64,000 nt of DNA from Myxococcales bacterium (GTDB lineage Bacteria; Myxococcota_A; Polyangia; Nannocystales; Nannocystaceae): the NCBI GenBank assembly GCA_020633295.1, contig JACKDW010000006.1, forward strand, positions 270,181 to 334,180. The letters are read 5' to 3'. Positions 4,039-55,751 of the stretch are shown piece by piece (position 1 is the stretch's first letter; each line of letters begins with the position of its first letter). Under the pieces are notes generated by a model, which saw only the letters and a program-made list of their open reading frames with translations, was not told where the DNA came from and ran no database searches. The position numbers were made by a program, and so were the translations under genes.

Positions 4039-4754
4039 GCCCGCGGGTGTTCGCGTGCGGCCCCCACGCCACGCCGCCGGCGCTCGTACCAGGCGGTCGC
4101 CTCGTCCTCGACCGCGACGAGTCCCACTACCTCCGCCGCGTTCGGCGCGTCCGCGTGGGCGCTACCGTGGAGGTAATTGACGGCGCAGGAGCCCTGTGGT
4201 CGGCCACCCTCGCGGACGATGACGCGCGTGCCTGCGCGCTCGAGCTCGGCGAGCGACTGCCCACGATCACGCCGCCGCGCGTCGTGGATCTCGTGCTCTG
4301 TATGCCCGAGTCCGCGGCGACCCTGACCGCGCTGACTGGGGCCTCCGAGGCCGGCGCCCACTCGATCACGCTCGCGCGCTCAGCCCGCAGTTCAACCTCC
4401 CCTCCCAGCGCCGCGCGCCAATTGCGCGTGCTTCGCGCTGCGCAACGACAGTGCGGTCGCCCGCTTCCCCCTGAGGTCCACGGTCCGATGTCGCTCACGG
4501 ACGCGGTTCGCGCGCACGCCGTGAATGGGCAAGGGTTTTTTGCTTGGGCGGCCCCGGCGGTACGCGCGCAGTCGGAACGACCGAACGTGATCGGGCCCCG
4601 TGTGTGGCTCGTGGTCGGACCCGAGGGCGGCCTCGTCGAGGAGGAGGTCAACGTGCTCCGCGAGGTTGGCGCGACGGCCATCGGCCTCGGTCCGTGGGTG
4701 CTTCGAAGCGAGACCGCCGCGATCGCCGGCATCGCGCTGCTATTGAATGTTTGA
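4035..4754 (+). CDS. rsmE: 16S rRNA (uracil1498-N3)-methyltransferase RsmE
   Basis: RsmE-like sequence includes the C-terminal motif VVGPEGGLVEEEV...RSETAAIAGIALL. The GTG start overlaps the prmA stop as GTGA at 4035-4038. The ORF track shows an earlier in-frame ATG at 3999, which lies inside prmA. Confidence 0.8.
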   Translation: MSPRVFACGPHATPPALVPGGRLVLDRDESHYLRRVRRVRVGATVEVIDGAGALWSATLADDDARACALELGERLPTITPPRVVDLVLCMPESAATLTALTGASEAGAHSITLARSARSSTSPPSAARQLRVLRAAQRQCGRPLPPEVHGPMSLTDAVRAHAVNGQGFFAWAAPAVRAQSERPNVIGPRVWLVVGPEGGLVEEEVNVLREVGATAIGLGPWVLRSETAAIAGIALLLNV

Positions 4755-4810
4755 TTTATAATTACAAATATTTAGATATCATTTTTAGATGTAAAACACC
4801 TCTCCATTTT
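4741..4810. promoter_or_regulatory. AT-rich island of about 70 bp, possibly the promoter or UP element for the downstream RDD gene
   Basis: The sequence ctattgaatgtttgatttataattacaaatatttagatatcatttttagatgtaaaac is about 20% GC in a ~70% GC genome. It contains TTGATT-N17-AGATAT and TATAAT-like hexamers. Confidence 0.3.
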
Positions 4811-32429: not shown

Positions 32430-33914
<1,485 letters not shown>

Positions 33915-40742: not shown

Positions 40743-41029
40743 GAAAAACACGTTAGAGATTTCACATCGGCATTGCAACGCCTAGAGCCCCCAAGGCACG
40801 GATTTCGACGAAACACTGGTCCCCACGACGATCCCTGGAGGGTGATTCCCCGCGGCGCGCGTCTCCACCGCGTTCGTCAAATCCTGCGTGAGCTTTGTTC
40901 CGATCATGAACGGCGTCTTCGCGCCACGACGAGACGTACAGTGCGGCCACCTCGAGCACGACATCGCCCAGCAGGTGTCCCCGGAACCATTCACGAACGA
41001 ACGACAGCTTCCGCGCGCGGTGTGATCAG

Positions 41030-41185
41030 CTCGTCTGATCGCCGAAGAGGGAAATCGGTTTAATGCCGATGCGGCTCCCGCCACTGTAAGTGGACACGAG
41101 ATCGACACGAGCCACTGGGCGCATCGCCTGGGAAGGCGTCGATCGAGGATGACCCACAAGCCAGGAGACCTGCCGCGCGCACCCC
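41030..41185 (+). ncRNA. Cobalamin (adenosylcobalamin) riboswitch
   Basis: AAGAGGGAAATCGGTTTAATGCCGATGCGGCTCCCGCCACTGTAAG...GAGCCACTGGG...TGGGAAGGCG...AAGCCAGGAGACCTGCCG matches the conserved cobalamin-riboswitch core. The B12-box AGCCAGGAGACCTGCC is at 41159-41174. It lies upstream of a TonB-dependent receptor. Confidence 0.88.
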
Positions 41186-41404
41186 TTCTCGGGCTCGTGA
41201 GCCCGACGCGGAGCCCACGGGAGTACTGGGCCGGGACCACGGGCGCGCCCGCCCGCCCGGGGAACACCCCACCTGCCCCCTCGCGCCGCGAGATTTCCCC
41301 CTCGCCGGTCGGAGGCAGGTATCGCACACCGCGCAACATCTCGGGCTTCTACGCCGCCGCGAGCGCCGCCAGACGAGCGCAGGACGATCGCTAAGAAGTG
41401 CGTC

Positions 41405-43540
41405 GTGATCGCGTGCGGGCTCGCGGCCGTGCTCACCACGACGCGCGCCGCCGCCGACGAGCGCGAGCCGACGTCACGCGACGCTCCGCCGGCGTACCGG
41501 ACCACGGTCCGTGACGCGCGCGAGGATCCCCTGGACGAGCAGCGGCGGATCGACGCGCGCGCGCCGGGCTTCGCCACGGCGATCGATCTCGAGCGCGACG
41601 TGGGGGCGCGACCCGCCGACTCGCTGGCCGAGGTGCTCGCGCGCTCGGCCGGCATCCACGTACGGTCCATGGGCGGGCTCGGCCAGTTCAGCTCGCTCTC
41701 GATCCGCGGATCGACGGGTCAGCAGGTCGCCGTCTATCTCGACGGCGTGCCCATCACCGGGAGCATGATGGGCCTGTTCAACATCGGCGACCAGCCGCTC
41801 GACGCGCTCGGGCGCGTCGAGGTCTATCGCGGCCACGTGCCGATCGTGTTCGGCGGCGCGGCGATCGGCGGCGCGGTCAACCTCGTCAGCGCGCGCGACT
41901 GCCCCAAGGACGGGGACGCGCAGCTCGAGGCGGGCGCCGGCTTCGGCTCGTTCCTCTCGCGTCAGGCCGACGTGACCGTCGCGCTCGGCCTCCCACGTCG
42001 CTTGTGTCTGCAGAGCCAGCTCAGCTACGCCGGCTCGCGCGGCGACTTCCCGTACTACGACAACGGGAGCACGCCGCTCGTGCCCGAGAACGACCAGACC
42101 TCGAGCCGCGAGAACAACCAGTACGATCGCGCGCAGGGGCGCGTCGGGCTCTCGGGCCGCCGCGGTCCGTGGCGCTTCCACGTCCAGCAGCTCGCGCTCG
42201 TCAAGCGTCAGGGGCTGCCCGGCATCGCCGAATCACCCGCCACGGTCGCCAGCCTCGACACCTACACGGCGCGCGCGCTCGGCTACGCGCGCCGCGCTGG
42301 GCTCGGCGGCCCCGGCGGCCGGCTCGAGCTCGTCGGCGCCGTCAGCTTCGAGGGCCGCGTGTTCCTCGACTCCAAGAACGAGGTCGGGCTCGGGGCCAAC
42401 AACCAGCGCACGCGCGCGGTCGATGTGTACCTCTCGCCGCGCCTGCGCCTGCCCCTGTGGACCGGCGCCTTCCTGGGCAGCGCGCTCGATCCTCGGCTCG
42501 AGTGGCTGCGCACGGACGAGCGCGTCAACCCCTCGCTCCCGCTCGGATACACGGGCGACCGCGTGCGCGCGCGCGTCGGCGGCGGCCTGGAGCTCGAGCA
42601 ATTCCTGCTCGACGATCACCTGCTCCTCGCGCCAGGCGTGCGCCTGGACGTGCTCTACAGCGAGTTCTCCGACGCGCGGGACGGCGAGGCGCGCGGCGCC
42701 GTCGACCACGCCGCGATCGCGGCGTCGCCCCGCCTGGGGGTGAAGCTCGCGCTCGCGCCGTGGCTCAGCCTGCGCAGCTCAGTGGGTCGATACTTCCGCG
42801 CGCCGACGATGTTCGAGCTGTTTAGCGACGTCGGCTACGCCGTCGGCGCCCCGACGCTCAGGCCCGAACGCGGCACGACGCTCGACGCGGGCTTCGTCTT
42901 TGATGTCGACGATCAGCCGCTGTTCACGCTGCGCGCCCACGTCGCGGCGTTTCGCACCCGGGCGCAGGACATGATCATCTGGCGGCAAGCCGGCCCGCGG
43001 ATCTCGTTCGTGAACGCGAGCGCGGCGCTCGTCGCCGGCGTCGAGAGCAGCGTCGACCTCGCTATGCTCTCCGGCGACATCGCGCTCACGGGCAACTACA
43101 CGCGGCTGTTCACCTTCAACGCCGCGCGCGGCAGCAACGAGTACGGCTTCCCGCTGATGGGCGTGCCCACGAACGACCTGTTTCTTCGGCCATCATGGGG
43201 ACACCGCTGGCGCGTCCGCAGCGTCGCGCTCGCGCCGCGCGTCTTCTACACGTACGAGCACCTCAGCGGCTACTTCCTCGATCCCTCCGGCCGCCACGAG
43301 GACGCGCCGCGCCGGTTCCACGGCCTCGGCCTCGAGCTCGCCATCTCCGAGCGCGTCAGCTTCGCGCTCGAGCTGCGCAACCTGACGAACATCAGCTTTG
43401 TGCACTGGAAGCTCTCCTTTATCAACGACACCTCCTTCGCCATCCAACAGCTCGCCGACGTCGCTGGGAACCCGCTCCCCGGTCGCAGCCTGTGGGCGAC
43501 CCTCCGCATCACGCCGACGCGCGCCCGTGCGCGCGACTGA
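41405..43540 (+). CDS. TonB-dependent outer-membrane receptor (BtuB-like), downstream of the B12 riboswitch
   Basis: A signal peptide is followed by the plug domain (DSLAEVLARSAGIHVRSMGGLGQFSSLSIRGSTGQQVAVYLDGVPI, RVEVYRGHVPIVFGGAAIGGAVNL). The long beta-barrel ends in an aromatic-rich C-terminus. Confidence 0.85.
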   Translation: MIACGLAAVLTTTRAAADEREPTSRDAPPAYRTTVRDAREDPLDEQRRIDARAPGFATAIDLERDVGARPADSLAEVLARSAGIHVRSMGGLGQFSSLSIRGSTGQQVAVYLDGVPITGSMMGLFNIGDQPLDALGRVEVYRGHVPIVFGGAAIGGAVNLVSARDCPKDGDAQLEAGAGFGSFLSRQADVTVALGLPRRLCLQSQLSYAGSRGDFPYYDNGSTPLVPENDQTSSRENNQYDRAQGRVGLSGRRGPWRFHVQQLALVKRQGLPGIAESPATVASLDTYTARALGYARRAGLGGPGGRLELVGAVSFEGRVFLDSKNEVGLGANNQRTRAVDVYLSPRLRLPLWTGAFLGSALDPRLEWLRTDERVNPSLPLGYTGDRVRARVGGGLELEQFLLDDHLLLAPGVRLDVLYSEFSDARDGEARGAVDHAAIAASPRLGVKLALAPWLSLRSSVGRYFRAPTMFELFSDVGYAVGAPTLRPERGTTLDAGFVFDVDDQPLFTLRAHVAAFRTRAQDMIIWRQAGPRISFVNASAALVAGVESSVDLAMLSGDIALTGNYTRLFTFNAARGSNEYGFPLMGVPTNDLFLRPSWGHRWRVRSVALAPRVFYTYEHLSGYFLDPSGRHEDAPRRFHGLGLELAISERVSFALELRNLTNISFVHWKLSFINDTSFAIQQLADVAGNPLPGRSLWATLRITPTRARARD

Positions 43541-43576
43541 CTCAAGGACATGAGACCCTCGCAGGAGCTGCCCATC

Positions 43577-44815
43577 ATGAACACACGCACCGCGCTGCTC
43601 ACCGCGCTCACGCTCACCGCCTGCGCGCCGAACATCCAGGACACCGGCGACGTCGTGGTCACCGACTCGGGGGACAGCGAGGGCGACACCGACGCGTCGC
43701 CCCTGCCCGGCTACCCGACGCTGACCGGCCCGTGCGTCCTCGGGACCGCGCAGCCGCGCCGGCTCGTCGTCACGACGACCGACTTCGCGACCGGGGCGGT
43801 GAGCGTCATCGACGCGGCGACCGACGCGGTCTCGGCCGACGTCGCGCTCGGCAGCACCGACGCGCTGCCCTTCGCCCACGGCGGCTACGTCTACCTGCTC
43901 CACCGCTACACGCTCGACGCGCTCGACACCCTCGACGCCGACGGCGCGTGGGCGACGCTGTCGCAGCAGGCGATCGAGGCGCCCGACGTCAGCAGCGCGA
44001 ACGCCCACCGCCTCGCCTTCTCGGACGACGGGCGCGCGTACATGACCCTGTTCGGCGCGCCCGAGATCCACGTCTACGCGCTCGACGATCCGACGCGCCC
44101 GACGCTGCTGCCCGACGCGACGATCGACATCTCCGCCGTCGCCGACGCCGACGGCAACCCGGAGGCGTCGCTCGCGGTCGTCTGCGGCGAGCTGCTGCTC
44201 GTCTCGATCGGGCGCCTCGACGAGGACGCGCTGTATCAGCCGACGACCGACCACGACGCGATCGTCCTCATCGATCGCCACACGGGCGCGCTCCACGACC
44301 TCGACGCCGACGCCGACGGGGTGCAGCCGCTGCGCCTGCAGGGTCGCTGGGCGCGACAGTGGCGGCTCGACCCCGCCGACGCGGAACGCCAGACCCTGCT
44401 GGTGCTGACGACCGGCCTCGAGCGACTCGACGTGCGGACCGGCGCCGTGTCCTGGGCGATCACGCCTGAACGCCTCGCGGCGGTCGGCGTCGCCGACGTC
44501 ATGCAGCCGCAGGCCTTCGCGCTCGCTGAGGACGGCCAGCTCGCCTACCTCGCCGCCTACACCGCAAACTTCGGCGGCGTCTCGCTGTTCGCCGGCGCGC
44601 TCGACGACGACGCGCCGCTCGTCCCGATCGCGACCGGCCTGCGCAGCGTCGAGCGGGTGCTCGAGCGCGTGGGCGACACCCTGTGGTACGGCGACAGAGC
44701 CGACAACCAGATCGGCGTCCACGCCCTCGACCTGACCACGAGCCCGCCGACGCCCCGACTCCACCTCCCGCTCGACGTGGGACTTCCTCCCTACTCCATG
44801 ATCGCGATCCCGTGA
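43577..44815 (+). CDS. Hypothetical lipoprotein (possible beta-propeller) in the B12-uptake cluster
   Basis: An AGGAG ribosome-binding site lies 9 nt upstream of the ATG at 43577. The lipobox signal is MNTRTALLTALTLTACAP. The protein is Asp/Thr/Ala-rich with repeated beta-strand-like segments. No family is recognised. Confidence 0.6.
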   Translation: MNTRTALLTALTLTACAPNIQDTGDVVVTDSGDSEGDTDASPLPGYPTLTGPCVLGTAQPRRLVVTTTDFATGAVSVIDAATDAVSADVALGSTDALPFAHGGYVYLLHRYTLDALDTLDADGAWATLSQQAIEAPDVSSANAHRLAFSDDGRAYMTLFGAPEIHVYALDDPTRPTLLPDATIDISAVADADGNPEASLAVVCGELLLVSIGRLDEDALYQPTTDHDAIVLIDRHTGALHDLDADADGVQPLRLQGRWARQWRLDPADAERQTLLVLTTGLERLDVRTGAVSWAITPERLAAVGVADVMQPQAFALAEDGQLAYLAAYTANFGGVSLFAGALDDDAPLVPIATGLRSVERVLERVGDTLWYGDRADNQIGVHALDLTTSPPTPRLHLPLDVGLPPYSMIAIP

Positions 44816-45720
44816 CCTCGAGCCCCACAGCCCCCCCGCGACGACGCGGCGCGGCCCTCGTCGCGCTCGCGCTGCTCGCCTGTAGCGGCCCCCCGCGCGC
44901 GCCCGCGTCGTCCGACGAAGAGGCGGTCGCGCGCGGCCGCACGCTGGCCTCGCAGACCGTGCTGAGCGACGAGGTCCTCTGGGAGCTCGGGCCGGCGGTG
45001 CGCGACCGCGTCGTCGCCGTGAGCGTGATGGCGGACGACCCGCGCTACAGCGCGGTCGTCGATCGCTGGCCCGAGGCCGTCCCGCGGCTCGCGGGCACGA
45101 GCGAGGCGCTGCTGGCCCTGAAGCCAGGCTACACCTTCGTCGCCAGCTTCACCTCGGCCGAGGCGCGCGCGCTGCTCGATCGGCACGGCGCGCCGACCCA
45201 CGTGCTCGACGGCTTCACCGGCTTCGCGGACTACCGAAGGCACGTCGGCGACATCGCGCGGCTCGCCGGCGCCGAGCAGGCCGGTCGCGCGCTCGTCGAG
45301 CGCTTCGACGGCGAGCTCGCGCGCCTGTCTCGCGACGTCCCGACGCCCGCAGTCGGGCTCGTCAGCTACAACGAGGGCGTCATCGCCGGCCGTGACACGA
45401 GCTTCCACGACGTCGCGCTCGCGGCCGGCTTCCGCAACATCGCGGCCGAGCACGAGATCACCGGCCACCGCTCGATCAGCGACGAGCTGCTCGTCTCGTG
45501 GGACCCGGCGGTGATCGTCATCCCCTGCGGGCCGCCGTCCTGTGACGCCAGCGAGCGCGCGTTCGCGCAGCGACCTGGCTTCTCCGCCACTCGCGCGGCG
45601 CGCGAGGGCGGCGTCATCGCGCTGCCCCCGGACAACCTCTACAGCGTCGGCCGCGGGATGATCGCGGCCGTCACGGCGCTGCGCCGTCGTCACCCCTCCC
45701 TGCGATCGCCCGCCCCGTGA
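44812..45720 (+). CDS. ABC transporter periplasmic substrate-binding lipoprotein (cobalamin / Fe-siderophore type, BtuF/FecB-like)
   Basis: The GTG start overlaps the upstream stop as GTGA. The lipobox is ALVALALLACSG. The TroA-like two-lobed binding protein resembles BtuF and FecB. Confidence 0.75.
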   Translation: MTSSPTAPPRRRGAALVALALLACSGPPRAPASSDEEAVARGRTLASQTVLSDEVLWELGPAVRDRVVAVSVMADDPRYSAVVDRWPEAVPRLAGTSEALLALKPGYTFVASFTSAEARALLDRHGAPTHVLDGFTGFADYRRHVGDIARLAGAEQAGRALVERFDGELARLSRDVPTPAVGLVSYNEGVIAGRDTSFHDVALAAGFRNIAAEHEITGHRSISDELLVSWDPAVIVIPCGPPSCDASERAFAQRPGFSATRAAREGGVIALPPDNLYSVGRGMIAAVTALRRRHPSLRSPAP

Positions 45721-46775
45721 TTGCCTCGCACCACGCCGCGCGCGCGCGGCATCCGGCCCTCGGCACGCTGCTCGCGCTCAGCTTGCTCGCCGCGCTCGCG
45801 CTCGCGGTCGTCGTCGGGCCCGGCGGCGTGGCGCCACGCGACGCGCTGCAGCTAATCGCGCGTCGGCTCGTCGGCGCGGGGCCGCCGACGGACCCCGACG
45901 TCGCGCTCGTCGACGCGATCGTGTGGTCGCTCCGCCTGCCCCGCGCGCTCCTGGCCGCGCTCGTCGGCGCGGCGCTCGGGGTCGCCGGCGCGCTCACGCA
46001 GGGCCTGTTCCGCAACCCGATGGCCGAGCCCGGCGTGCTCGGCGTGAGCTCGGGAGCCGCGGTCGCGGCTGTCCTTGGGTTCAGCCTCGGGCTCGACGCG
46101 CTCGGCCTCTGGGTGACGCCCGCGCTCTCTGCCGTCGGCGCGATCGGGATCCTGCTCGCGCTGCTCGCACTCGCGGGCACGCGCCACGGGATCGCCACGC
46201 TGCTGCTCGCCGGCGTCGCGCTCGCGGCGCTGTGCTCAGCCCTGACGACGCTGATGCTCGCGCTCGCGAGCGAGCGCTGGGATCTCGGGCTCAAGGTCGT
46301 CCGCTGGCTCATGGGCAGCTTCGAGGGCCGCAGCTGGGACCACCTCGCCGGCGCGCTCGCCCCCGCCGCGCTCGGCCTCCTCGCCGGCGCGTGGCTGCGA
46401 CGCGACCTCGACACGCTCCAGCTCGGCGCCGACACGGCCCGCTCCCTCGGCGTCCGGCTCGAGCGCGTACAGCTGCTGACGATCCTCAGCGCCGCGATCC
46501 TCGTCGGCACCTCGACTGCGGTCGCTGGCGTCATCGGCTTCGTCGGCCTCATCGTCCCCCACGTCGTGCGCATGCTCGCGGGCCCCGGGCACCGCCGCCT
46601 CCTGCCGCTCTCGGGGCTGCTCGGCGCGAGCCTGGTCGTCCTCGTCGACACCGGCTCACGCGCCTTCGGCGATCGGAGCCTCCCGCCCGGCGTCATCACG
46701 AGCCTGCTCGGCGCGCCGTTCTTCCTGTGGATCCTCCGCCGCCACGGGCGGCGGCTCGATCACCTCGATCGTTGA
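45717..46775 (+). CDS. FecCD-family ABC transporter permease (BtuC-like)
   Basis: Multiple transmembrane helices are present. FecCD signature regions are RLPRALLAALVGAALGVAGALTQGLFRNPMAEPGVLGVSSGA and LLLAGVALAALCSALTTL. The GTG start overlaps the upstream stop. Confidence 0.85.
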   Translation: MIASHHAARARHPALGTLLALSLLAALALAVVVGPGGVAPRDALQLIARRLVGAGPPTDPDVALVDAIVWSLRLPRALLAALVGAALGVAGALTQGLFRNPMAEPGVLGVSSGAAVAAVLGFSLGLDALGLWVTPALSAVGAIGILLALLALAGTRHGIATLLLAGVALAALCSALTTLMLALASERWDLGLKVVRWLMGSFEGRSWDHLAGALAPAALGLLAGAWLRRDLDTLQLGADTARSLGVRLERVQLLTILSAAILVGTSTAVAGVIGFVGLIVPHVVRMLAGPGHRRLLPLSGLLGASLVVLVDTGSRAFGDRSLPPGVITSLLGAPFFLWILRRHGRRLDHLDR

Positions 46776-46967: not shown

Positions 46968-47040
46968 TTGTCCACAGCGGAGAATCGAGTTATCCACACC
47001 CGCGCCGGAGTCATCCACAGGTCGAGCCTGCTTCTCCACA
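46968..47040 (+). promoter_or_regulatory. Array of four same-orientation DnaA boxes with 21-22 bp phasing inside a 1 kb gene-free region
   Basis: The boxes are TTGTCCACA (46968), TTATCCACA (46990, a perfect consensus), TCATCCACA (47011) and TTCTCCACA (47032), each within one mismatch of TTATCCACA. A weaker CCATCCACA lies at 47298. The flanking region 46776-47806 has no convincing ORF and has AT-rich patches. Confidence 0.5.
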
Positions 47041-47806
47041 GCGCCCCACGCCCACGAAGCCCATGAAACGGTGACCTGCACTACGCCCGCGTCAACCAAG
47101 TCACCGTCGCGCTGTGCTCCGCGCTGAAGCCGCGCCCACGTCGAGTGTCGCCCTCAGGCCGTCACGATCGTCGCCGCGGACCCCCATACAGGCCAACACT
47201 CCCGATTTCCGAGCGGCCCGCCGCTCGGCGCGGGATCGACGACATGAGCGCTTCCACGCCCAATACGAGGAAAATTACGTTTCATGCGCGCTCGCGTCCA
47301 TCCACAGGGGAGATCACTCCACGCCCTGGGGATAATCGTCGACCAACCGGCCAACCGGCTTGCACTTCGGTACCAGACGTGTTGGGGGATACGAGCCTCC
47401 ACTGCATTGGCAGAGACGGTGGTGCCCGCGCGTACGCGTGTCACGCTGTACGCGTCCCGCTCACCCACAACATCTTGCGCCTCGGTGACCGCGCGCGACA
47501 CAACATGTTGTGTTCGCGCCGCGACGCCCGCCGCGCCGAACGACTTCGCACCGGCCGGCCGGAAGCGGTCCGGAGCGCAAGCGAGCGTACGCGTAAATAT
47601 GTACTTTCCGACCAATGCACAATCGTGCGTAGACGCGCCGCAATTGCGAGCATACGCGACCCTACTGGAACAAGAAAAATGCGTTTACCATGGCCGTCCG
47701 CCTGGCCCGTGGTTCCGGGGTGGCTCGAAGCACAGCCGCCCCCCAGTCGCGCAGGGAGATTGACCTCGCGACGCCCGTTACAGGCGCCCCCAGGAGACGA
47801 TCCCCT

Positions 47807-48826
47807 ATGCGCTTGCACCACATCGCGATCCTCGCCTGCTGTCTGACCGCGTGCATGAGCGACGACCTCGACGACCTCGACACCGCAGAGGATGACGTCG
47901 ACGTCGAGCTCGCCGAGAAAGACGAGGTCGAGCTGCGCGCGGACGCCGAGAACCAGGAAGTCGCCTCGCTCGCGCTCGTGGACGACGAAGCCATCGACAG
48001 CGAGGGAGACACCCACGCGGGCGGCGACCTCGAGGACGAGGACGGCGACGAGGCCCTGGACGAGGACGCGCTCGCGGCGGCGCTCGACTTCGAGTACCGC
48101 GAGTGCGTGCACGCGCTCGACAGCAAGCGCCCCAAGCTGACGAAAGAGACGCAGCAGCGGACCAAGGACATCATCGCCCACGTCCACAAGCGCATGAAGG
48201 CGTCCCGCGGCTTCCGCAAGCTGCTGATGCTCGTCGCGCTGCGCGAGGCCAGCTACCAGAGCGGCCTCGTGCACCGCCTCCAGCCCGACATCGAGGGCAG
48301 CCACAGCGCGTGGCGCAAGATGAAGGACCGCTACCCCGACAACCCCTACGCCGAGGATCCCAACCTCTGGCAGACCTACGGGCTGTTCGGGATGAACTCG
48401 AATTACTTCACGATGCTGTGGAGCAAGCAGGCCGACCCGCGCGTGCTCTGCGACCCGATCGTCGACGTGCTCGTCTATCGCCGCGCGGCCGAGCGCGCGC
48501 TGCGGAAGCTCAACGGCACCATCAAGTGCAAGAACGCCGACGGCGAGACCTACGACTTCCGCACGACGCCGACGTGGGCGACGATCCACCGCGCGGTCAA
48601 CGGCGGCAAGCTGTGCCCCTCCAAGCACGAGAACCAGGCCGCGATCATGCGCAAGTACTTCAACGCGCGCGCGATCAAGAAGGGCCTCGACGCGGATGAG
48701 CGCGTGACGTCGAAGATGCTCGGCGTCGAGCCCGACCGCGGCCTCGACGGCGAGGTGTGGGAGACGCAGGAGGAGATGGTCATGGGCCTTTGGGAGGAGT
48801 TCGAGGCCCTCGCCGAGGAGAGCTAG
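47807..48826 (+). CDS. Hypothetical lipoprotein with an acidic N-terminal region, possibly a lytic-transglycosylase/lysozyme-like fold
   Basis: An AGGAGA ribosome-binding site lies 7 nt before the ATG at 47807. The lipobox is MRLHHIAILACCLTAC. An Asp/Glu-rich region follows. The C-terminal domain has SLT-like motifs (LREASYQSGL, GLFGMN, YF). The fold assignment is tentative. Confidence 0.6.
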   Translation: MRLHHIAILACCLTACMSDDLDDLDTAEDDVDVELAEKDEVELRADAENQEVASLALVDDEAIDSEGDTHAGGDLEDEDGDEALDEDALAAALDFEYRECVHALDSKRPKLTKETQQRTKDIIAHVHKRMKASRGFRKLLMLVALREASYQSGLVHRLQPDIEGSHSAWRKMKDRYPDNPYAEDPNLWQTYGLFGMNSNYFTMLWSKQADPRVLCDPIVDVLVYRRAAERALRKLNGTIKCKNADGETYDFRTTPTWATIHRAVNGGKLCPSKHENQAAIMRKYFNARAIKKGLDADERVTSKMLGVEPDRGLDGEVWETQEEMVMGLWEEFEALAEES

Positions 48827-48850
48827 AGCTAGAGCTAGAGCTAGAGCTAG
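48821..48850. repeat. Hexanucleotide microsatellite (AGCTAG)x5 that begins inside the stop codon of the upstream lipoprotein gene
   Basis: The sequence reads gag-agctag-agctag-agctag-agctag-agctag-cgcg. Each unit contains TAG. The unit is built of palindromic AGCT and CTAG tetramers, which is unusual in a 70% GC genome. Confidence 0.85.
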
Positions 48851-49410
48851 CGCGTCCATCCCGGCCCACGCGTGACCGACCGTCGCGCCGTGGGCCGTCG
48901 TGTATCGGGGGCCCGAGGCGACCACGCGACGCTACGGCGCGCCGCTGGGGCTCGACGGCGGCGACGGGGCATCGCGCCCGCTCGCGGGGCCGCTGGGGGC
49001 GGCGCGAGCCGGGCGCGGACTCGCGCGCCCCTGCGCTCGTTGTATCGGCATTCTCGACGCGCCTGTGCACATAAACCACGCGCGAGGAATCGTCGATCCT
49101 CGAGAGTGCGCTCAATTCGTTTTATCTACACATTTCCATTAGGACATCTAGAGAACGACGCGCGGCTCGCCGCGCTCGACGACCCGCGCGAGCGCCCGCG
49201 AGGCGACCGCGAGATCTCGCGTCGCTCGAAAACGCCGCGGCGCCGTCGCGTCGCGACGCTTTGGTTACCACGCGGACGTCCGTCGCTGACGAGCCGGCCG
49301 ATGGACCCGTGCGCCGCGAAAACATCACGCGTCGACGTCGGCCTGCCGCCCGTGACGTGGTCCACGATTCGGGCTAGAGTTCGCGCGCCGCTCCGCCCGA
49401 AGGACCCCTC

Positions 49411-50540: not shown

Positions 50541-52436
50541 ATGTCTCCCGCACGCAACGGCCACCGATCGCCCGCGTTCCGAGCCCGACGGCCGTGGACC
50601 CTCCTCGGTCTCGCAGCGCTCGCGCTCACGATCACCGCGTCCCCGTCCTGCAAACGGACCCCGGACGACGGGCCGTCGAAATCACCGGACGGCGGCAACG
50701 CCGGAGACGCCAACACCACTGACGCCTGGTCGACCCTTGGGCCGGTTGATGTCGCCCACATTCGCACGCACATGGAGTTCCTCGCCGCCGACGCCCAGGA
50801 GGGTCGCGCGCCGGGGACCGAAGCCGACCAACGCGTCCGCGCGCACGTCGTCGCCGCCATGCGCGAGCTGGGTCTCGAGCCGGCCTTCGACGGCGGCGGC
50901 TACGAGCAGGCCTTTGAGGTCACCGACGGCGTGCGCGTGCGCGCCAAGAAGACCGACATGCTCGCGTCCGGTCGCACCCTCATCGAGCACAACCTCGTGC
51001 CCTGGGGTCACGATACCAGCGAGAGCGGCCCCGTCCTCGGACGCTTCATCTATCTCGGCTACGGCCTCGCGGGTGATGAGCCGTGGACCGGGGACTACGC
51101 CAACCTCAAGGGGCGCACCAACCGAATTGTCGTCGTCCGCGCGGGCGGCCCCGACGACCCCCACCTCGACCCCAGCAAGATCCGCCCGCAGACCAAATTA
51201 ATCACCGCGCGCGAGCACGGGGCCATCGGCTTCGTGCTGTGGGAGCCCGACAACGAGTCGCCCTACCCCAACAACGGGCGCGTCAACGATCTGCAGATCC
51301 CGGCTGTCGCCGTCGGCGCGAGCGGCACCGACGCGATGCTCGAGATCTTCGGCGTCAAGGGCCGCGCCGCCGCCAAGGCCAAGAAGTCCGACGATCCCCA
51401 CTTCGGGATCACCAACGGCACCAAGAGCACGCGACAGGGCGTCATCGACACCCCCGTCGAGCCGATCGTCCTCGGTACCGGCAACGTCAGCGGGATCCTC
51501 CGCGGCAACGGCTCGAGCCCCAAGCGTCTGGTCATCGGGGCGCACATGGACCACCTCGGCATGGGCAACAGCCACTCGCTCGCGCCGGGCGAGCGCGCCG
51601 TCCACAACGGCGCCGACGACAACGCGTCGGGTGTGGCGACCATGCTCGCGCTGGCCAAGACGCTCGCCTCCGTGCCCGCGAGCGAGCGCCCCTACGACAT
51701 CCAGTTCGTCGCGTTCGGGGCCGAGGAGATGGGCCTGCTCGGCTCCAAGCACCTCGTCACCCAGCTCGGCGCCCAGGCCGCCGAGCAGATCGTCGCCATG
51801 CTGAACTTCGACATGGTCGGGCGCATGCGCGACAACACCGTCATCGTCGCCGGCGCGGGCACCTCCTCGGCGTGGGCGGGGCTGCTCGAGAAGTCCGGGG
51901 GCGGGCTCACGGTCAAGACCAACGAGCAGGGCTACGGCGCCTCCGACCAGACCTCCTTTTATGAGGTCGGGATCCCGGTCCTTCACTTCTTTACCGGCGC
52001 CCACGACGACTATCACAAGCCCTCCGACGACCTGGACAAGATCGACTTCGCCGGCGCCGCCCGCATCGGCGACATGGCCGCCCGCGTGGTCGCGGCCATC
52101 ATGTCGCAGTCCCTCCAGCTCGACTACAAGAAGGTCGTCGAGTCCAAGCCGATGCGTTCGGGCTTCCGCGTGTCCCTGGGCACGATCCCCGACTACGCCG
52201 CCCAGGCCGACGGCCTCGCGCTCTCCGGCGTCCGCCCGGGCGGCGCCGCCGAGAAGGCAGGACTGCGCAAGGGCGACGTGATCCAGAAGCTCGGAGAGCG
52301 CGAGATCCACAACATGGACGACTACATGGCCGCCTTCGCCGTGCTCAAGCCCGCGGTCGAGATCGAGGTCGTCGTGCTCCGCGACGGCAAGCAGGTCGCC
52401 CTGAAGATCACCCCGGAAGCGCCACGTCGACGCTAG
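50541..52436 (+). CDS. M28-family aminopeptidase with a PA domain and a C-terminal PDZ domain
   Basis: M28 zinc ligands are present (GAHMDHLG, GADDNASGVATML, FGAEEMGLLGS, GAHDDYH). The C-terminal PDZ is GLALSGVRPGGAAEKAGLRKGDVIQKLGEREI. I prefer the internal ATG at 50541 (signal-like MSPARNGHRSPAFRARRPWTLLGLAALALTITA). The upstream part of the track ORF overlaps fabH. Confidence 0.75.
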   Translation: MSPARNGHRSPAFRARRPWTLLGLAALALTITASPSCKRTPDDGPSKSPDGGNAGDANTTDAWSTLGPVDVAHIRTHMEFLAADAQEGRAPGTEADQRVRAHVVAAMRELGLEPAFDGGGYEQAFEVTDGVRVRAKKTDMLASGRTLIEHNLVPWGHDTSESGPVLGRFIYLGYGLAGDEPWTGDYANLKGRTNRIVVVRAGGPDDPHLDPSKIRPQTKLITAREHGAIGFVLWEPDNESPYPNNGRVNDLQIPAVAVGASGTDAMLEIFGVKGRAAAKAKKSDDPHFGITNGTKSTRQGVIDTPVEPIVLGTGNVSGILRGNGSSPKRLVIGAHMDHLGMGNSHSLAPGERAVHNGADDNASGVATMLALAKTLASVPASERPYDIQFVAFGAEEMGLLGSKHLVTQLGAQAAEQIVAMLNFDMVGRMRDNTVIVAGAGTSSAWAGLLEKSGGGLTVKTNEQGYGASDQTSFYEVGIPVLHFFTGAHDDYHKPSDDLDKIDFAGAARIGDMAARVVAAIMSQSLQLDYKKVVESKPMRSGFRVSLGTIPDYAAQADGLALSGVRPGGAAEKAGLRKGDVIQKLGEREIHNMDDYMAAFAVLKPAVEIEVVVLRDGKQVALKITPEAPRRR

Positions 52437-52577
52437 CTCGGGACACCCCGTCGAAAGCGGCCGGTCGCTCGCGCGACACGGCCGCTTTGAACGTTCGGGC
52501 CCGCTGTCACGGCGCCGTGTCGGGTCGGTTGTCGCAGACTCTGCCGGGAGATCCAGGGATCATCCGCGCGGTTGCAG

Positions 52578-52624
52578 GAATCCACAGGAGCGACCTGCCA
52601 TCCACAGGGAGAACTTGTGGATAA
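52578..52624. promoter_or_regulatory. Second DnaA-box-like cluster: two plus-strand near-boxes and one perfect minus-strand TTATCCACA forming an inverted pair
   Basis: GAATCCACA (52578) and CCATCCACA (52598) lie on the plus strand. TGTGGATAA (52616-52624) is a perfect DnaA box on the minus strand. The extended motif CATCCACAGGGAG is shared with sites at 47011 and 47298. Confidence 0.35.
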
Positions 52625-52995
52625 CTTGTACCTACATCGCGGTACAGGCGCTGGGCGTAGAACTGTCATTAGGACCAGCCAGGGCGGGCTTCTCGGGGGG
52701 TCTGATTGTGACATGCCGCGGAATTCATGTCGCAACAGACCGCTGGTTCCGGCGCGGGGCCATCAGCCTACGCAGACGTCCCGCCTAGCGGCAGGAGACC
52801 CGAACCCAACCTTTCGAAAAAAATCGAATTCCAGATTTCTGAATTTTCTCCGCGCCCGAATTTTGCCTCGAGGCCCACGTCAGCGCGGTTCTCCTGTATC
52901 TTCGTGTTGGTTGTACGCGCATGCACTCGGCTCTGAGCCAGCGCGTCACCCTAAGAATCCGGCGATTCGACCAACACAAGCCAAGGCAGGAAGAC

Positions 52996-54468
52996 ATGAT
53001 GCGTGTACGCACAACGACGCTCCATCTCGGTCTATTCGTGATGATGGGCCAGGTCTTCGGGTGTGGTGACAGCGGCTCGCCGACTTCGACCGACGCCGCC
53101 GGGACGACCGGGAGCACCGAGACCACCGAGAGCGAGGACGAGTCCACCGGAGGCGCGAGCATTAACACCTCGACGTCGAGCGCGGACGAGACCAGCGACA
53201 CGGGCAGCTCCGGCGCGACGACCGAGCCCCACGACACGACCGGCACCACCGGCGAGCCCATGACCACGAGCGACGGGAGCGGGACGAGCGACACCGGCGT
53301 CGGCTCGTGCGGCGACGGGATCAAGGACGAGGGCGAGGAGTGCGACGGCGCCGATCTCGGCGAGTTCACGAGCTGCCAGGCCCTCGACATCGAGCATGAG
53401 ATCGGTCCCGGAGGACAGATCACGTGCAGCCCGAGCTGCGAGCTCGACACGAGCGGCTGCGACATCTGCTACGCGCCGTACAAGAACGAGCCCTGCGACA
53501 ACAACTCCAACGACCGCATGCACGCGCTCGAGCTCAACTGCGCGCTGCTCAACGGCGAGGACTTCAACGAGCTCAACTCGACCTCGCTCGTCAACGGCAG
53601 CCTGAGCTTCCACGCCCCCGACAGCGACTCGTGGCGCGTGATCCGACAGTTCGGCACCGCGATCGACCCCGACACGAACAAGCCCTACTGGAGCGCGCGC
53701 GGCGGCGAGAAGTTCATCGCGCTGAGCACCGGCAACCTCGACGTGCCGGTCGGCGGCGTGCTCGAGATGGCCTCGGGCGCCGCGCAGTCCGGTCAGAACG
53801 GCGAGAACGACAACCCCGACAACCTCGTCGAGCTGCCTGGCGTCATGAACCACCAGCACGGCGGCTTCGACGAGCAGGACCCCGAGGTGCTCTCGCCCTT
53901 CGACAAGTGCGAGCCGGGCCTCGACTGCTCCAACACGCTCGAGGAGCACTGGCTGACGGGCACCGGCAAGGGCCACGACGTCCTGTACTTCGAGTTCCAG
54001 GTGCCTGTGCCCATGGGCACGCACTCCTTCGAGCTCGACTTCGCGTTCTTCTCGGCCGAGTACCCCGAGTGGAACGGCGACGACTTCCTCCCGTTCAGCG
54101 ACATCGCCATCATCTGGGCGCAGAGCGAGGAGTACACCGGCAACATCTCGTTCATCGACGACGGCCAGGGGAACAAGCAGCCGCTCGTGACCCTGTACCT
54201 CAACGAGCGCGGGCTGATCGCGTTCAACGAGGATCACGAGGCGCTCGAGGGCACCGGCTTCGACGGCGTCGGCGGCACGACCGGCTGGCTCAAGGCCCGC
54301 GGCAACGCGATGCCGGGCGAGACGCTGACGCTCGCGTTCTCGGTCATCGACCGCGGCGACAAGCTGATCGACACCGTGCTGCTCCTCGACAACTTCCAGT
54401 GGGGCTGCTCGGCCTGCCCGCAGGGGACCGTCGACATCGACGGCAGCTGCGGGATCACGCTCCAGTAG
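52996..54468 (+). CDS. Lipoprotein with a Myxococcus-type cysteine-rich repeat and a large C-terminal domain
   Basis: An AGGAAG ribosome-binding site precedes the ATG at 52996. The lipobox is LHLGLFVMMGQVFGCG. A Thr/Ser/Asp/Glu-rich linker follows. CGDGIKDEGEECDGADLG matches the myxobacterial Cys-rich repeat (TIGR02232-like pattern CGDGxxxxGEECDDGN). Confidence 0.7.
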   Translation: MMRVRTTTLHLGLFVMMGQVFGCGDSGSPTSTDAAGTTGSTETTESEDESTGGASINTSTSSADETSDTGSSGATTEPHDTTGTTGEPMTTSDGSGTSDTGVGSCGDGIKDEGEECDGADLGEFTSCQALDIEHEIGPGGQITCSPSCELDTSGCDICYAPYKNEPCDNNSNDRMHALELNCALLNGEDFNELNSTSLVNGSLSFHAPDSDSWRVIRQFGTAIDPDTNKPYWSARGGEKFIALSTGNLDVPVGGVLEMASGAAQSGQNGENDNPDNLVELPGVMNHQHGGFDEQDPEVLSPFDKCEPGLDCSNTLEEHWLTGTGKGHDVLYFEFQVPVPMGTHSFELDFAFFSAEYPEWNGDDFLPFSDIAIIWAQSEEYTGNISFIDDGQGNKQPLVTLYLNERGLIAFNEDHEALEGTGFDGVGGTTGWLKARGNAMPGETLTLAFSVIDRGDKLIDTVLLLDNFQWGCSACPQGTVDIDGSCGITLQ

Positions 54469-54788: not shown

Positions 54789-55751
54789 ATGTCACGTCGG
54801 AACAAGATCACGATCGTTGGTGCCGGGAACGTTGGAGCCACGGCGGCTCACTGGGCGGTGCAGAAACACCTCGGAGATGTCGTCCTCGTCGACATCAAGG
54901 AGGGCATGCCCCAGGGCAAGGCGCTCGACCTGGCCGAGGCGTCCCCGGTGATGGGCTTCGACTGCACGCTCACGGGCAGCAACAGCTACGACGCGACCGC
55001 GGGCTCGGACGTCGTCGTCATCACCGCCGGCGTCCCCCGGCGCAAGGACCCCAAGACTGGCAAGTTCACGAGCCGTGACGAGCTCGTCGAGATCAACCGC
55101 AAGATCGTCGGCTCGGTGACCCGCGAGGTCGTCAAGCGCTCGCCCGACGCGGTCCTCATCTGCGTGGCCAACCCGCTCGACGCGATGTGCCACGTCATGT
55201 ACCACGAGTCAGGTTTCCCGAAGGAGCGCGTGATCGGCATGGCCGGCGTGCTCGACACGGCGCGCTACAAGTTCTTCATCTCCGAGGCGCTCGGCGTCAG
55301 CGTCGACGACATCCACGGCATGGTGCTCGGCGGCCACGGCGACACGATGGTGCCGCTGCCGCACCACACCTCGATCGGCGGCATCCCGCTGCCGGAGCTG
55401 CTGCCCAAGGAGAAGATCGACGCGATCATCGAGCGCACGCGCAAGGGCGGCGGCGAGATCGTCGGGCTGCTCGGCTACTCGGGCTACTACGCGCCGGCCG
55501 CCTCGGTCATCGCGATGGTCGAGTCGATCGTCCGCGACCGCAAGCGCGTGCTCCCGGCCGCGTGCATGCTGCAGGGCGAGTACGGCTACAAGGACCTGTT
55601 CATCGGCGTCCCCGCGGTGCTCGGCAAGGGCGGCGTCGAGAAGATCATCGAGATGAAGCTCGGTGACGCGGAGAAGGCGATGCTCGAGGTCTCGGCCGAG
55701 GCCGTCCGCAGCGTCGTCGAGCTCCTGCCCTACGACAAGAGCAGCAACTAG
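54789..55751 (+). CDS. mdh: Malate dehydrogenase (LDH-like family)
   Basis: KITIVGAGNVGATAA is the NAD-binding Rossmann motif. Catalytic motifs include VITAGVPRRKDPKTGKFTSRDELVEIN and GGHGDTMVP. An RBS precedes the ATG at 54789. Confidence 0.93.
   Translation: MSRRNKITIVGAGNVGATAAHWAVQKHLGDVVLVDIKEGMPQGKALDLAEASPVMGFDCTLTGSNSYDATAGSDVVVITAGVPRRKDPKTGKFTSRDELVEINRKIVGSVTREVVKRSPDAVLICVANPLDAMCHVMYHESGFPKERVIGMAGVLDTARYKFFISEALGVSVDDIHGMVLGGHGDTMVPLPHHTSIGGIPLPELLPKEKIDAIIERTRKGGGEIVGLLGYSGYYAPAASVIAMVESIVRDRKRVLPAACMLQGEYGYKDLFIGVPAVLGKGGVEKIIEMKLGDAEKAMLEVSAEAVRSVVELLPYDKSSN

Follow-up and report, generated by a model that had tools for sequence, protein, structure and literature searches.

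DnaA-binding loci outside the replication origin control initiation in Escherichia coli, Bacillus subtilis and Streptomyces (PMC3245932). Among the closest described systems, the DBCs of B. subtilis are intergenic, carry several consensus-like DnaA boxes and are not origins. They precede unrelated genes, which differ by species, and they have been proposed to titrate or modulate DnaA and to regulate the downstream genes, and are also implicated in restraining initiation (Okumura et al. 2012, PMC3245932). Another example is datA of E. coli, a cluster of high-affinity DnaA boxes outside the origin that lowers the initiation potential (as summarised in PMC3245932). For the myxobacteria, which have very large genomes, a literature search found no comparable DnaA-binding loci described.

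Here we describe two candidate loci of this kind in a 64-kb stretch of DNA (hereafter the window), with a G+C content of ~70% and with proteins that are closest to those of the Nannocystaceae (Polyangia, Myxococcota). One of its lipoproteins is 100% identical to H6713_21395, a protein of a 'Myxococcales bacterium' MAG. The two loci are probably DnaA-box clusters specific to this lineage and located outside oriC, comparable to the B. subtilis DBCs and E. coli datA, which would hold DnaA and may influence the lipoprotein genes that follow them. Their motif is enriched and fits the DnaA consensus with a T-rich 5′ half, and the 9-mers are constrained while the spacers are not. Both clusters share with the DBCs the presence of several consensus-like boxes in intergenic, non-origin DNA. 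The Bacillus clusters, mostly located near oriC, have been shown to bind DnaA in vivo.

Cluster 1 is carried by the first of two intergenic regions, the 0.9-1.0 kb between fecCD, which ends at 46775, and the lipoprotein gene lipo1 (ATG at 47690 or 47807, end at 48826). The fecCD gene is the last of a riboswitch-led operon (41001-46775), which comprises a cobalamin riboswitch (41001-41191, 124 bits, the sole Rfam match in the window) followed by genes for a TonB-dependent receptor, a product without assigned function, a BtuF-like binding protein and the FecCD permease; no ABC ATPase gene was identified beside this operon. Downstream of lipo1 come fabH and the gene of an M28-PDZ peptidase, which ends at 52436. 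The second region, 560 bp between the peptidase gene and lipo2, carries cluster 2, so that three genes stand between the clusters. The lipo2 gene (52999-54468) encodes a lipoprotein, annotated as a choice-of-anchor-L protein, and is followed by mdh and sucC. We place its start at the second ATG (52999) because contigs found via mdh show it so; exact-protein look-ups for the downstream lipoprotein from two candidate starts gave no match. Housekeeping genes elsewhere in the window include sdhAB, prmA, rsmE, ffh, rpoN, hpf, pyrG, accC, lgt and lspA, and a tRNA scan of the window found none. These flanking gene ends and starts bear out the preliminary description of this DNA, which had both clusters as intergenic.

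The same gene order with both intergenic regions was found in L003 (a 'Polyangia bacterium' MAG), in L163 (MAG, GCA_964496845.1) and in the more distant L004 (a Nannocystaceae MAG). Identity of the M28-PDZ peptidase to that of the window is 80% in L003, 63% in L004 and ~53% in Nannocystis species. Footprinting rests on four genomes, the window included, i.e. three lineages; L001 and L002, which are near-identical to the window and hence uninformative for this purpose, were left out. The comparison covers ~0.4 Mb of Nannocystaceae DNA, and a metagenome scan with FabH returned only relatives of ~70% identity, none of them syntenic and none with box clusters. Loci of the genus Nannocystis have no lipo2, fabH or lipo1 beside the peptidase gene, and for that reason they are silent on the clusters at that position; there, mdh lies directly 3′ of the peptidase gene. 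In the window and in L004, mdh stands between lipo2 and sucC (54789-55751), a place from which it is missing in L003 and L163. From these gene orders, the peptidase-lipo2-mdh segment appears to be rearranging within the family.

The most regular part of cluster 1 is an array of four same-strand boxes at 46968, 46990, 47011 and 47032, spaced by 22, 21 and 21 bp, which is absent from the preliminary description. Its first box, b1 (46968-46976, plus strand), reads TTGTCCACA followed by G, with one mismatch to the DnaA-box consensus TTATCCACA, and CTTGTCCACAG is invariant there in the window, L003, L163 and L004. A perfect TTATCCACA follows 22 bp later as b2 (46990-46998, plus strand), where GTTATCCACA is invariant in all four genomes and the next base is C, not GG, in three of them. 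Next come b3 (47011-47019, plus strand; TCATCCACA then GG, 21 bp after b2) and b4 (47032-47040, plus strand; TTCTCCACA then G, 21 bp after b3). Both are fully invariant in the window, L003 and L163 (11 of 11 columns for b3, 10 of 10 for b4); in L004, b3 is degenerate and b4 is lost.

A sub-cluster begins 260 bp downstream of the array with box 1b (47298-47306, plus strand), which reads CCATCCACA followed by GGGGAG; its TCCACA core is kept in L003 and L163, and the adjoining GGGAGATCACTCCAC is invariant in three genomes. Seventeen bp after box 1b, a weak box with a TCCAC core, CACTCCACG (47315-47323, plus strand), falls within an invariant block at 47308-47322. In L004, TCATCCACAGG, located ~12 nt after the shared GGGAGATC, may be the counterpart of this weak box, by our own reading and not by aligner placement. 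The sub-cluster ends with an inverted box (47327-47335, minus strand), TTATCCCCA or TGGGGATAA on the plus strand, which has one mismatch and is partly conserved, as TGGTGATTA in L003 and TGTTGATTA in L163. The octamer-sized GGGAGATC occurs only twice in the window (47308-47315 and 52546-52553), once per box-bearing region and near a box, following box 1b in the first region and preceding box c1 in the second. It looks like a separate small conserved element, since the TCATCCACAGG box of L004 comes after it and the aligned counterpart of box 1b in that genome is degenerate.

Cluster 2 consists of two direct boxes that converge on a perfect inverted one, and the coordinates previously given for it all proved correct on re-reading the window. 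The first, c1 (52578-52586, plus strand), reads GAATCCACA then GG, and a same-strand CCACAGG box lies at roughly the corresponding position in L003 (TACCCACAGG), L163 (GTATCCACAGG) and L004 (TCATCCACAGG). The second, c2 (52598-52606, plus strand), begins 20 bp after c1, reads CCATCCACA then GGGAG, and faces c3 over a 9-bp gap; it has no positional counterpart in L003 or L163, where the gap between the plus and minus box cores is 24 nt. The inverted c3 (52616-52624, minus strand) is a perfect TTATCCACA, TGTGGATAA on the plus strand, and lies within a TGTGGATAACTTG shared without change by the window, L003 and L163; L004 lacks this box. Ahead of the c3 position, same-strand CCACAGG boxes vary in number and spacing, but no genome is without one.

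How unusual these boxes are can be judged from counts over the 64 kb. The motif ATCCACAGG has six matches against 0.23 expected, a number that none of 100 shuffles of the window reaches. Four of the matches start in the two intergenic regions, which lie 5.5 kb apart (47013, 47300, 52580 and 52600). Two further exact copies lie in coding DNA: one in rpoN (33253-33261) and one, not kept in L003, on the minus strand in the 3′-terminal part of fecCD (46724-46732). Allowing one mismatch, TTATCCACA, a consensus from which that of the host may differ, has 11 matches against 1.36 expected, with 6 of the 11 inside the two intergenic regions. When 500-bp windows were ranked for boxes, these regions came out as the densest of the 64 kb. 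Together they contain two perfect boxes, one in each, four with one mismatch and three with two mismatches; TCACCCACA at 47461, also with two mismatches to TTATCCACA, was not counted as a box.

A motif table built from 10 independent sites gives the recognition element more precisely. TCCACA is invariant in 10/10 sites, position 3 is A in 8/10, and positions 1 and 2 are T in 6/10 and 5/10, against roughly 15% T in the genome. Beyond the 9-mer, G is found at +10 in 8/10 sites (p=0.005) and at +11 in 7/10 (p=0.03), with no base preferred at positions beyond these. The extended motif appears, then, to be the DnaA box TTATCCACA with G at +10 and at +11. Its core had been described as identically extended at 47011, 47298, 52578 and 52598, which holds through ATCCACAGG and ends beyond it (tcgag, ggag, agcg and gaga, respectively); orthologous sites in the relatives continue differently again, and the 'gag' tail is not conserved. 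The boxes of E. coli, read directly, are TTATCCACAGGG for oriC R1, TTATCCACAGTA for R4 and TTATCCACAGGA for DARS1 box II. The high-affinity boxes R1 and DARS1 box II both read TTATCCACAGG, and ATCCACAGG is the exact sequence there, so that neither a second protein nor a special consensus is needed. The GG flank would be an ordinary feature of strong DnaA boxes and no separate signal. Of the two explanations offered in the preliminary description, a longer DnaA-box consensus in this organism gains weak backing from the favoured G at +10 and +11, but the same flank in E. coli shows that it is not organism-specific. The other, a different protein for ATCCACAGG, is unnecessary: the best-conserved sites, TTGTCCACAG and TTATCCACA(c/g), which are invariant in four genomes, follow the DnaA 9-mer, and one of these two, b2, lacks the GG.

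Other readings of the motif were tried and discarded. A CsrA-type small RNA with repeated GGA motifs was rejected because the conserved part is the box, not GGA. A CRP/FNR-type palindrome formed by c2 and c3 was rejected because its half-sites are wrongly oriented and their distance shifts from 9 to 24 nt among genomes. The Myxococcus 'C box', with the consensus CAYYCCY, is mismatched at position 6.

In the window, L003 and L163, the four boxes b1-b4 are invariant in 41 of 41 columns, compared with 58% for the whole of intergenic region 1, none of the 10 columns of the b3-b4 spacer, and 30% for the lipo1-fabH spacer taken as a neutral comparator; c3 is invariant in 9 of its 10 columns. A further box of that spacer, TTATCTACA at 49122, lacks conservation and was rejected. 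Since the 9-mers are invariant while the spacers diverge in the three closest syntenic genomes, the boxes are under purifying selection. Their arrangement is looser: the gaps from plus to minus boxes are 9 and 29 nt in the window versus 24 nt in L003 and L163, and the number, spacing and orientation of the boxes differ among genomes. Such flexibility suggests monomeric binding of the protein rather than a dimer site of fixed geometry.

The distribution of the boxes is limited to one clade. At fecCD-lipo1-fabH they are absent in L176, L179 (N. punicea) and L180 despite the same gene order, and L004 has lost b3, b4 and c3, half of its boxes. The lipo1 paralogue in the L003 genome has no boxes either. 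Cluster 2 is found only where lipo2 and its upstream region exist, and the more distant lipo2 homologues of L013, L014 and L168 are box-free; a pair of boxes spaced by 21 bp in Paraliomyxa (L010) lies inside coding sequence and was dismissed as coincidental. The clusters are evolutionarily young; L004 retains them in partly decayed form and neither L176 nor Nannocystis has them, from which it follows that any role in replication control is dispensable at the family level. They show DnaA-box loci arising and decaying within one family.

Cluster 2 recalls a further E. coli element, the core of the DnaA-reactivating sequences DARS1 and DARS2 (PMC6868365); in DARS1, box I is set against box II, and here too an imperfect box converges on a perfect one, and the orientation of c2 (plus, 52598) and c3 (minus, 52616) is that of TTATCCACT and TGTGGATAA in DARS1. 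The perfect box of L003 and that of L163, unlike the one in the window, also have the CCTGTGGATAA context of DARS1. However, boxes I and II of the E. coli DARS are always 5 bp apart and a third lies 3 bp beyond box II, whereas the corresponding distance is 9 bp in the window and 24 nt in L003 and L163, and no third box follows c3. A DARS-like mechanism is not supported. As to datA, with which the clusters share the accumulation of high-affinity boxes away from the origin, its stimulation of DnaA-ATP hydrolysis needs an IHF site among specific boxes. The IHF consensus WATCAANNNNTTR, which is that of E. coli and may not be the host's, had no match on either strand of the two intergenic regions.

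One rival is that the two clusters, with an AT-rich tract at 52808-52862, form a recently relocated two-part oriC of this lineage, far from dnaA, as proposed for Sorangium, whose predicted origin lies ~2 Mb from dnaA (PMC2650636). If true, it would be an origin in a class, the Polyangia, with no experimentally mapped origin and where skew-based prediction is problematic. Like oriC, including the two-part origins of Helicobacter pylori and B. subtilis, the clusters present multiple intergenic boxes in two groups split by genes, and the five boxes with at most one mismatch inside 370 bp would satisfy origin-prediction programs. The segment 52808-52847 is the second most AT-rich 40-mer of the window (72% AT, 185 bp from c3), and in L003 and L163 the tract is preceded by an extra box, GATCCACAGGC; it could equally be the lipo2 promoter. 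The resemblance to an origin stops at the intergenic box clusters, as a skew switch, an adjacent unwinding element or DnaA-trio, linkage to replication genes or parS, and conservation in syntenic relatives are all missing. None of dnaA, dnaN, gyrB, parAB or rpmH/rnpA was among the window ORFs scanned for Pfam domains, and no parS-like site occurs in the 64 kb. GC skew is -0.027 to the left and -0.039 to the right of the clusters, 13 of 16 4-kb bins are negative, and the cumulative skew falls monotonically; being negative on both sides, independently of gene strand, it has no switch here and the window apparently lies within one replichore. The four-box array has neither an AT-rich element nor a trinucleotide repeat beside it, and by eye no trinucleotide repeat follows any box. 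Together with the three genes that separate the clusters, the box-free syntenic loci of L176, L179 and L180 and the loss of half of the boxes in L004, this leaves an origin very unlikely.

Better placed, yet still unlikely in our view, is a different protein, such as a response regulator, a lineage-specific transcription factor or a paralogue with a DnaA-type domain IV, that would recognise TCCACAGG and control both downstream lipoprotein genes from far-upstream sites. The enrichment of G at both +10 and +11 speaks for it, as does the location of both clusters upstream of, and pointing at, genes of secreted lipoproteins, in long intergenic regions with several other conserved blocks typical of complex promoters; phasing by 21-22 bp is also known from arrays of transcription-factor sites. 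Nevertheless, the best-conserved sites match the full DnaA 9-mer including its TT(A/G) 5′ half, b2 does without GG, the same 11-mer is present at bona fide DnaA sites of E. coli, and neither spacing nor orientation of the boxes is kept among genomes. Between 41 and 64 kb, where several ORFs have no family match, none of the genes identified encodes a regulator. Moreover, lipo1 orthologues and the paralogue elsewhere are box-free, and the boxes are not tied to lipo1, since the orthologues in L179 and L180 lack them yet keep an upstream CACAACATNTTG. An element of this type is present in the window as a 16-bp perfect palindrome, ACACAACATGTTGTGT (47498-47513), with a half-site near 47467-47478; the core of ACACAACATGTTGTGT is invariant in four genomes, and the related CACAACATNTTG is found upstream of lipo1 orthologues including those of Nannocystis punicea and L180. 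It is probably this palindrome element, and not the boxes, that serves as the lipo1-linked operator of some regulator. Chance coincidence, a dispersed repeat or the remnant of a mobile element (a MITE, a REP element or plasmid iterons) is scarcely credible. The motif is short and in the same orientation in both regions, and its four-fold repetition every 21-22 bp is superficially iteron-like, but only 9-11 bp of each unit are conserved, so the array units are not iterons. The shuffles never equalled the observed count, orthologous boxes are conserved in three other genomes, and the genes identified in the vicinity include no rep, transposase or integrase. Similarity from one cluster to the other reaches at best 28 nt at 71%, with only the core motif in common, and neither region has a match among 72,556 plasmids; without a longer shared repeat or a plasmid match, the clusters are not a dispersed element, and the known-repeat test proposed in the preliminary description comes out negative. 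To chance, a repeat element or an RNA-level element we leave only a small remainder.

DnaA-box clusters outside oriC thus remain our preferred reading. We infer DnaA as the binding protein, with titration or regulation as the consequence. Each 9-mer would bind one DnaA monomer through the helix-turn-helix domain IV. The boxes b1-b4 being two helical turns apart (22, 21 and 21 bp), the bound proteins would lie on one face of the DNA, where they could touch each other via DnaA domain I. Both clusters together would act as high-affinity DnaA-holding loci, which hold or modulate the initiator pool, and the transcription of lipo1 and lipo2 may respond to DnaA. Because DARS-like and datA-like mechanisms are unsupported here, simple high-affinity binding is the favoured mode, either as titration or as a DnaA-dependent tuning of nearby promoters. 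Some observations count against this reading: the clusters are young and dispensable at the family level, the boxes of the array are separated by 12-13 bp, a distance too great for a continuous DnaA AAA+ filament, with no conserved weak sites in between, and the sole published origin prediction in the Polyangia, that of Sorangium, proposed a different box, TTATCCCCC (PMC2650636). The gain is modest, in that the two clusters are concrete, conserved candidate DnaA-binding loci in the Nannocystaceae. There is also a caution for annotation, as an origin-prediction program would be drawn to a run of five such near-perfect boxes where skew, gene content and comparison argue otherwise.

Several other elements were noted around the lipoprotein genes and elsewhere in the window. 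Scans for sigma-70 promoters and intrinsic terminators gave no match in either intergenic region, and a sigma-54 promoter seen by eye near 47665 (TGGAAC-N..-TGC) was discarded, its spacing being off by 2 bp. Far from the clusters, the A+T content of the window peaks in a 60-bp island at 4737-4800 (82-88% A+T, ctattgaatgtttgatttataattacaaatatttagatatcatttttagatgtaaaac), which takes in the 3′ end of rsmE as well as the short gap to an RDD-family gene and has no DnaA box nearby. The lipo1-fabH spacer contains a conserved palindrome, CGCGAGATCTCGCG (49207-49220), and GAGATC could represent either another shared element or a site of methylation. Beginning in the final codons of lipo1, the hexamer AGAGCT is repeated perfectly in tandem (5.3 copies, 48819-48850), producing a run of in-frame TAG stops; this repeat is absent from L003 and L163. 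Upstream of lipo2, an inverted repeat at 52707-52734, TGTGACATG-N10-CATGTCGCA, becomes the perfect pair TGCGACATG/CATGTCGCA in L003 and L163 and is a second candidate operator, unrelated to the DnaA boxes. Finally, lipo1 has an in-frame upstream ATG (ACCATGGCCGTCCGC, MAVRL...) 117 nt before its lipoprotein signal peptide (47690-47806). In four genomes the nucleotide sequence of this segment is conserved, although L003 has a 1-nt indel, and the segment could be a conserved 5′ leader or a small upstream ORF instead of the true N-terminus of lipo1.
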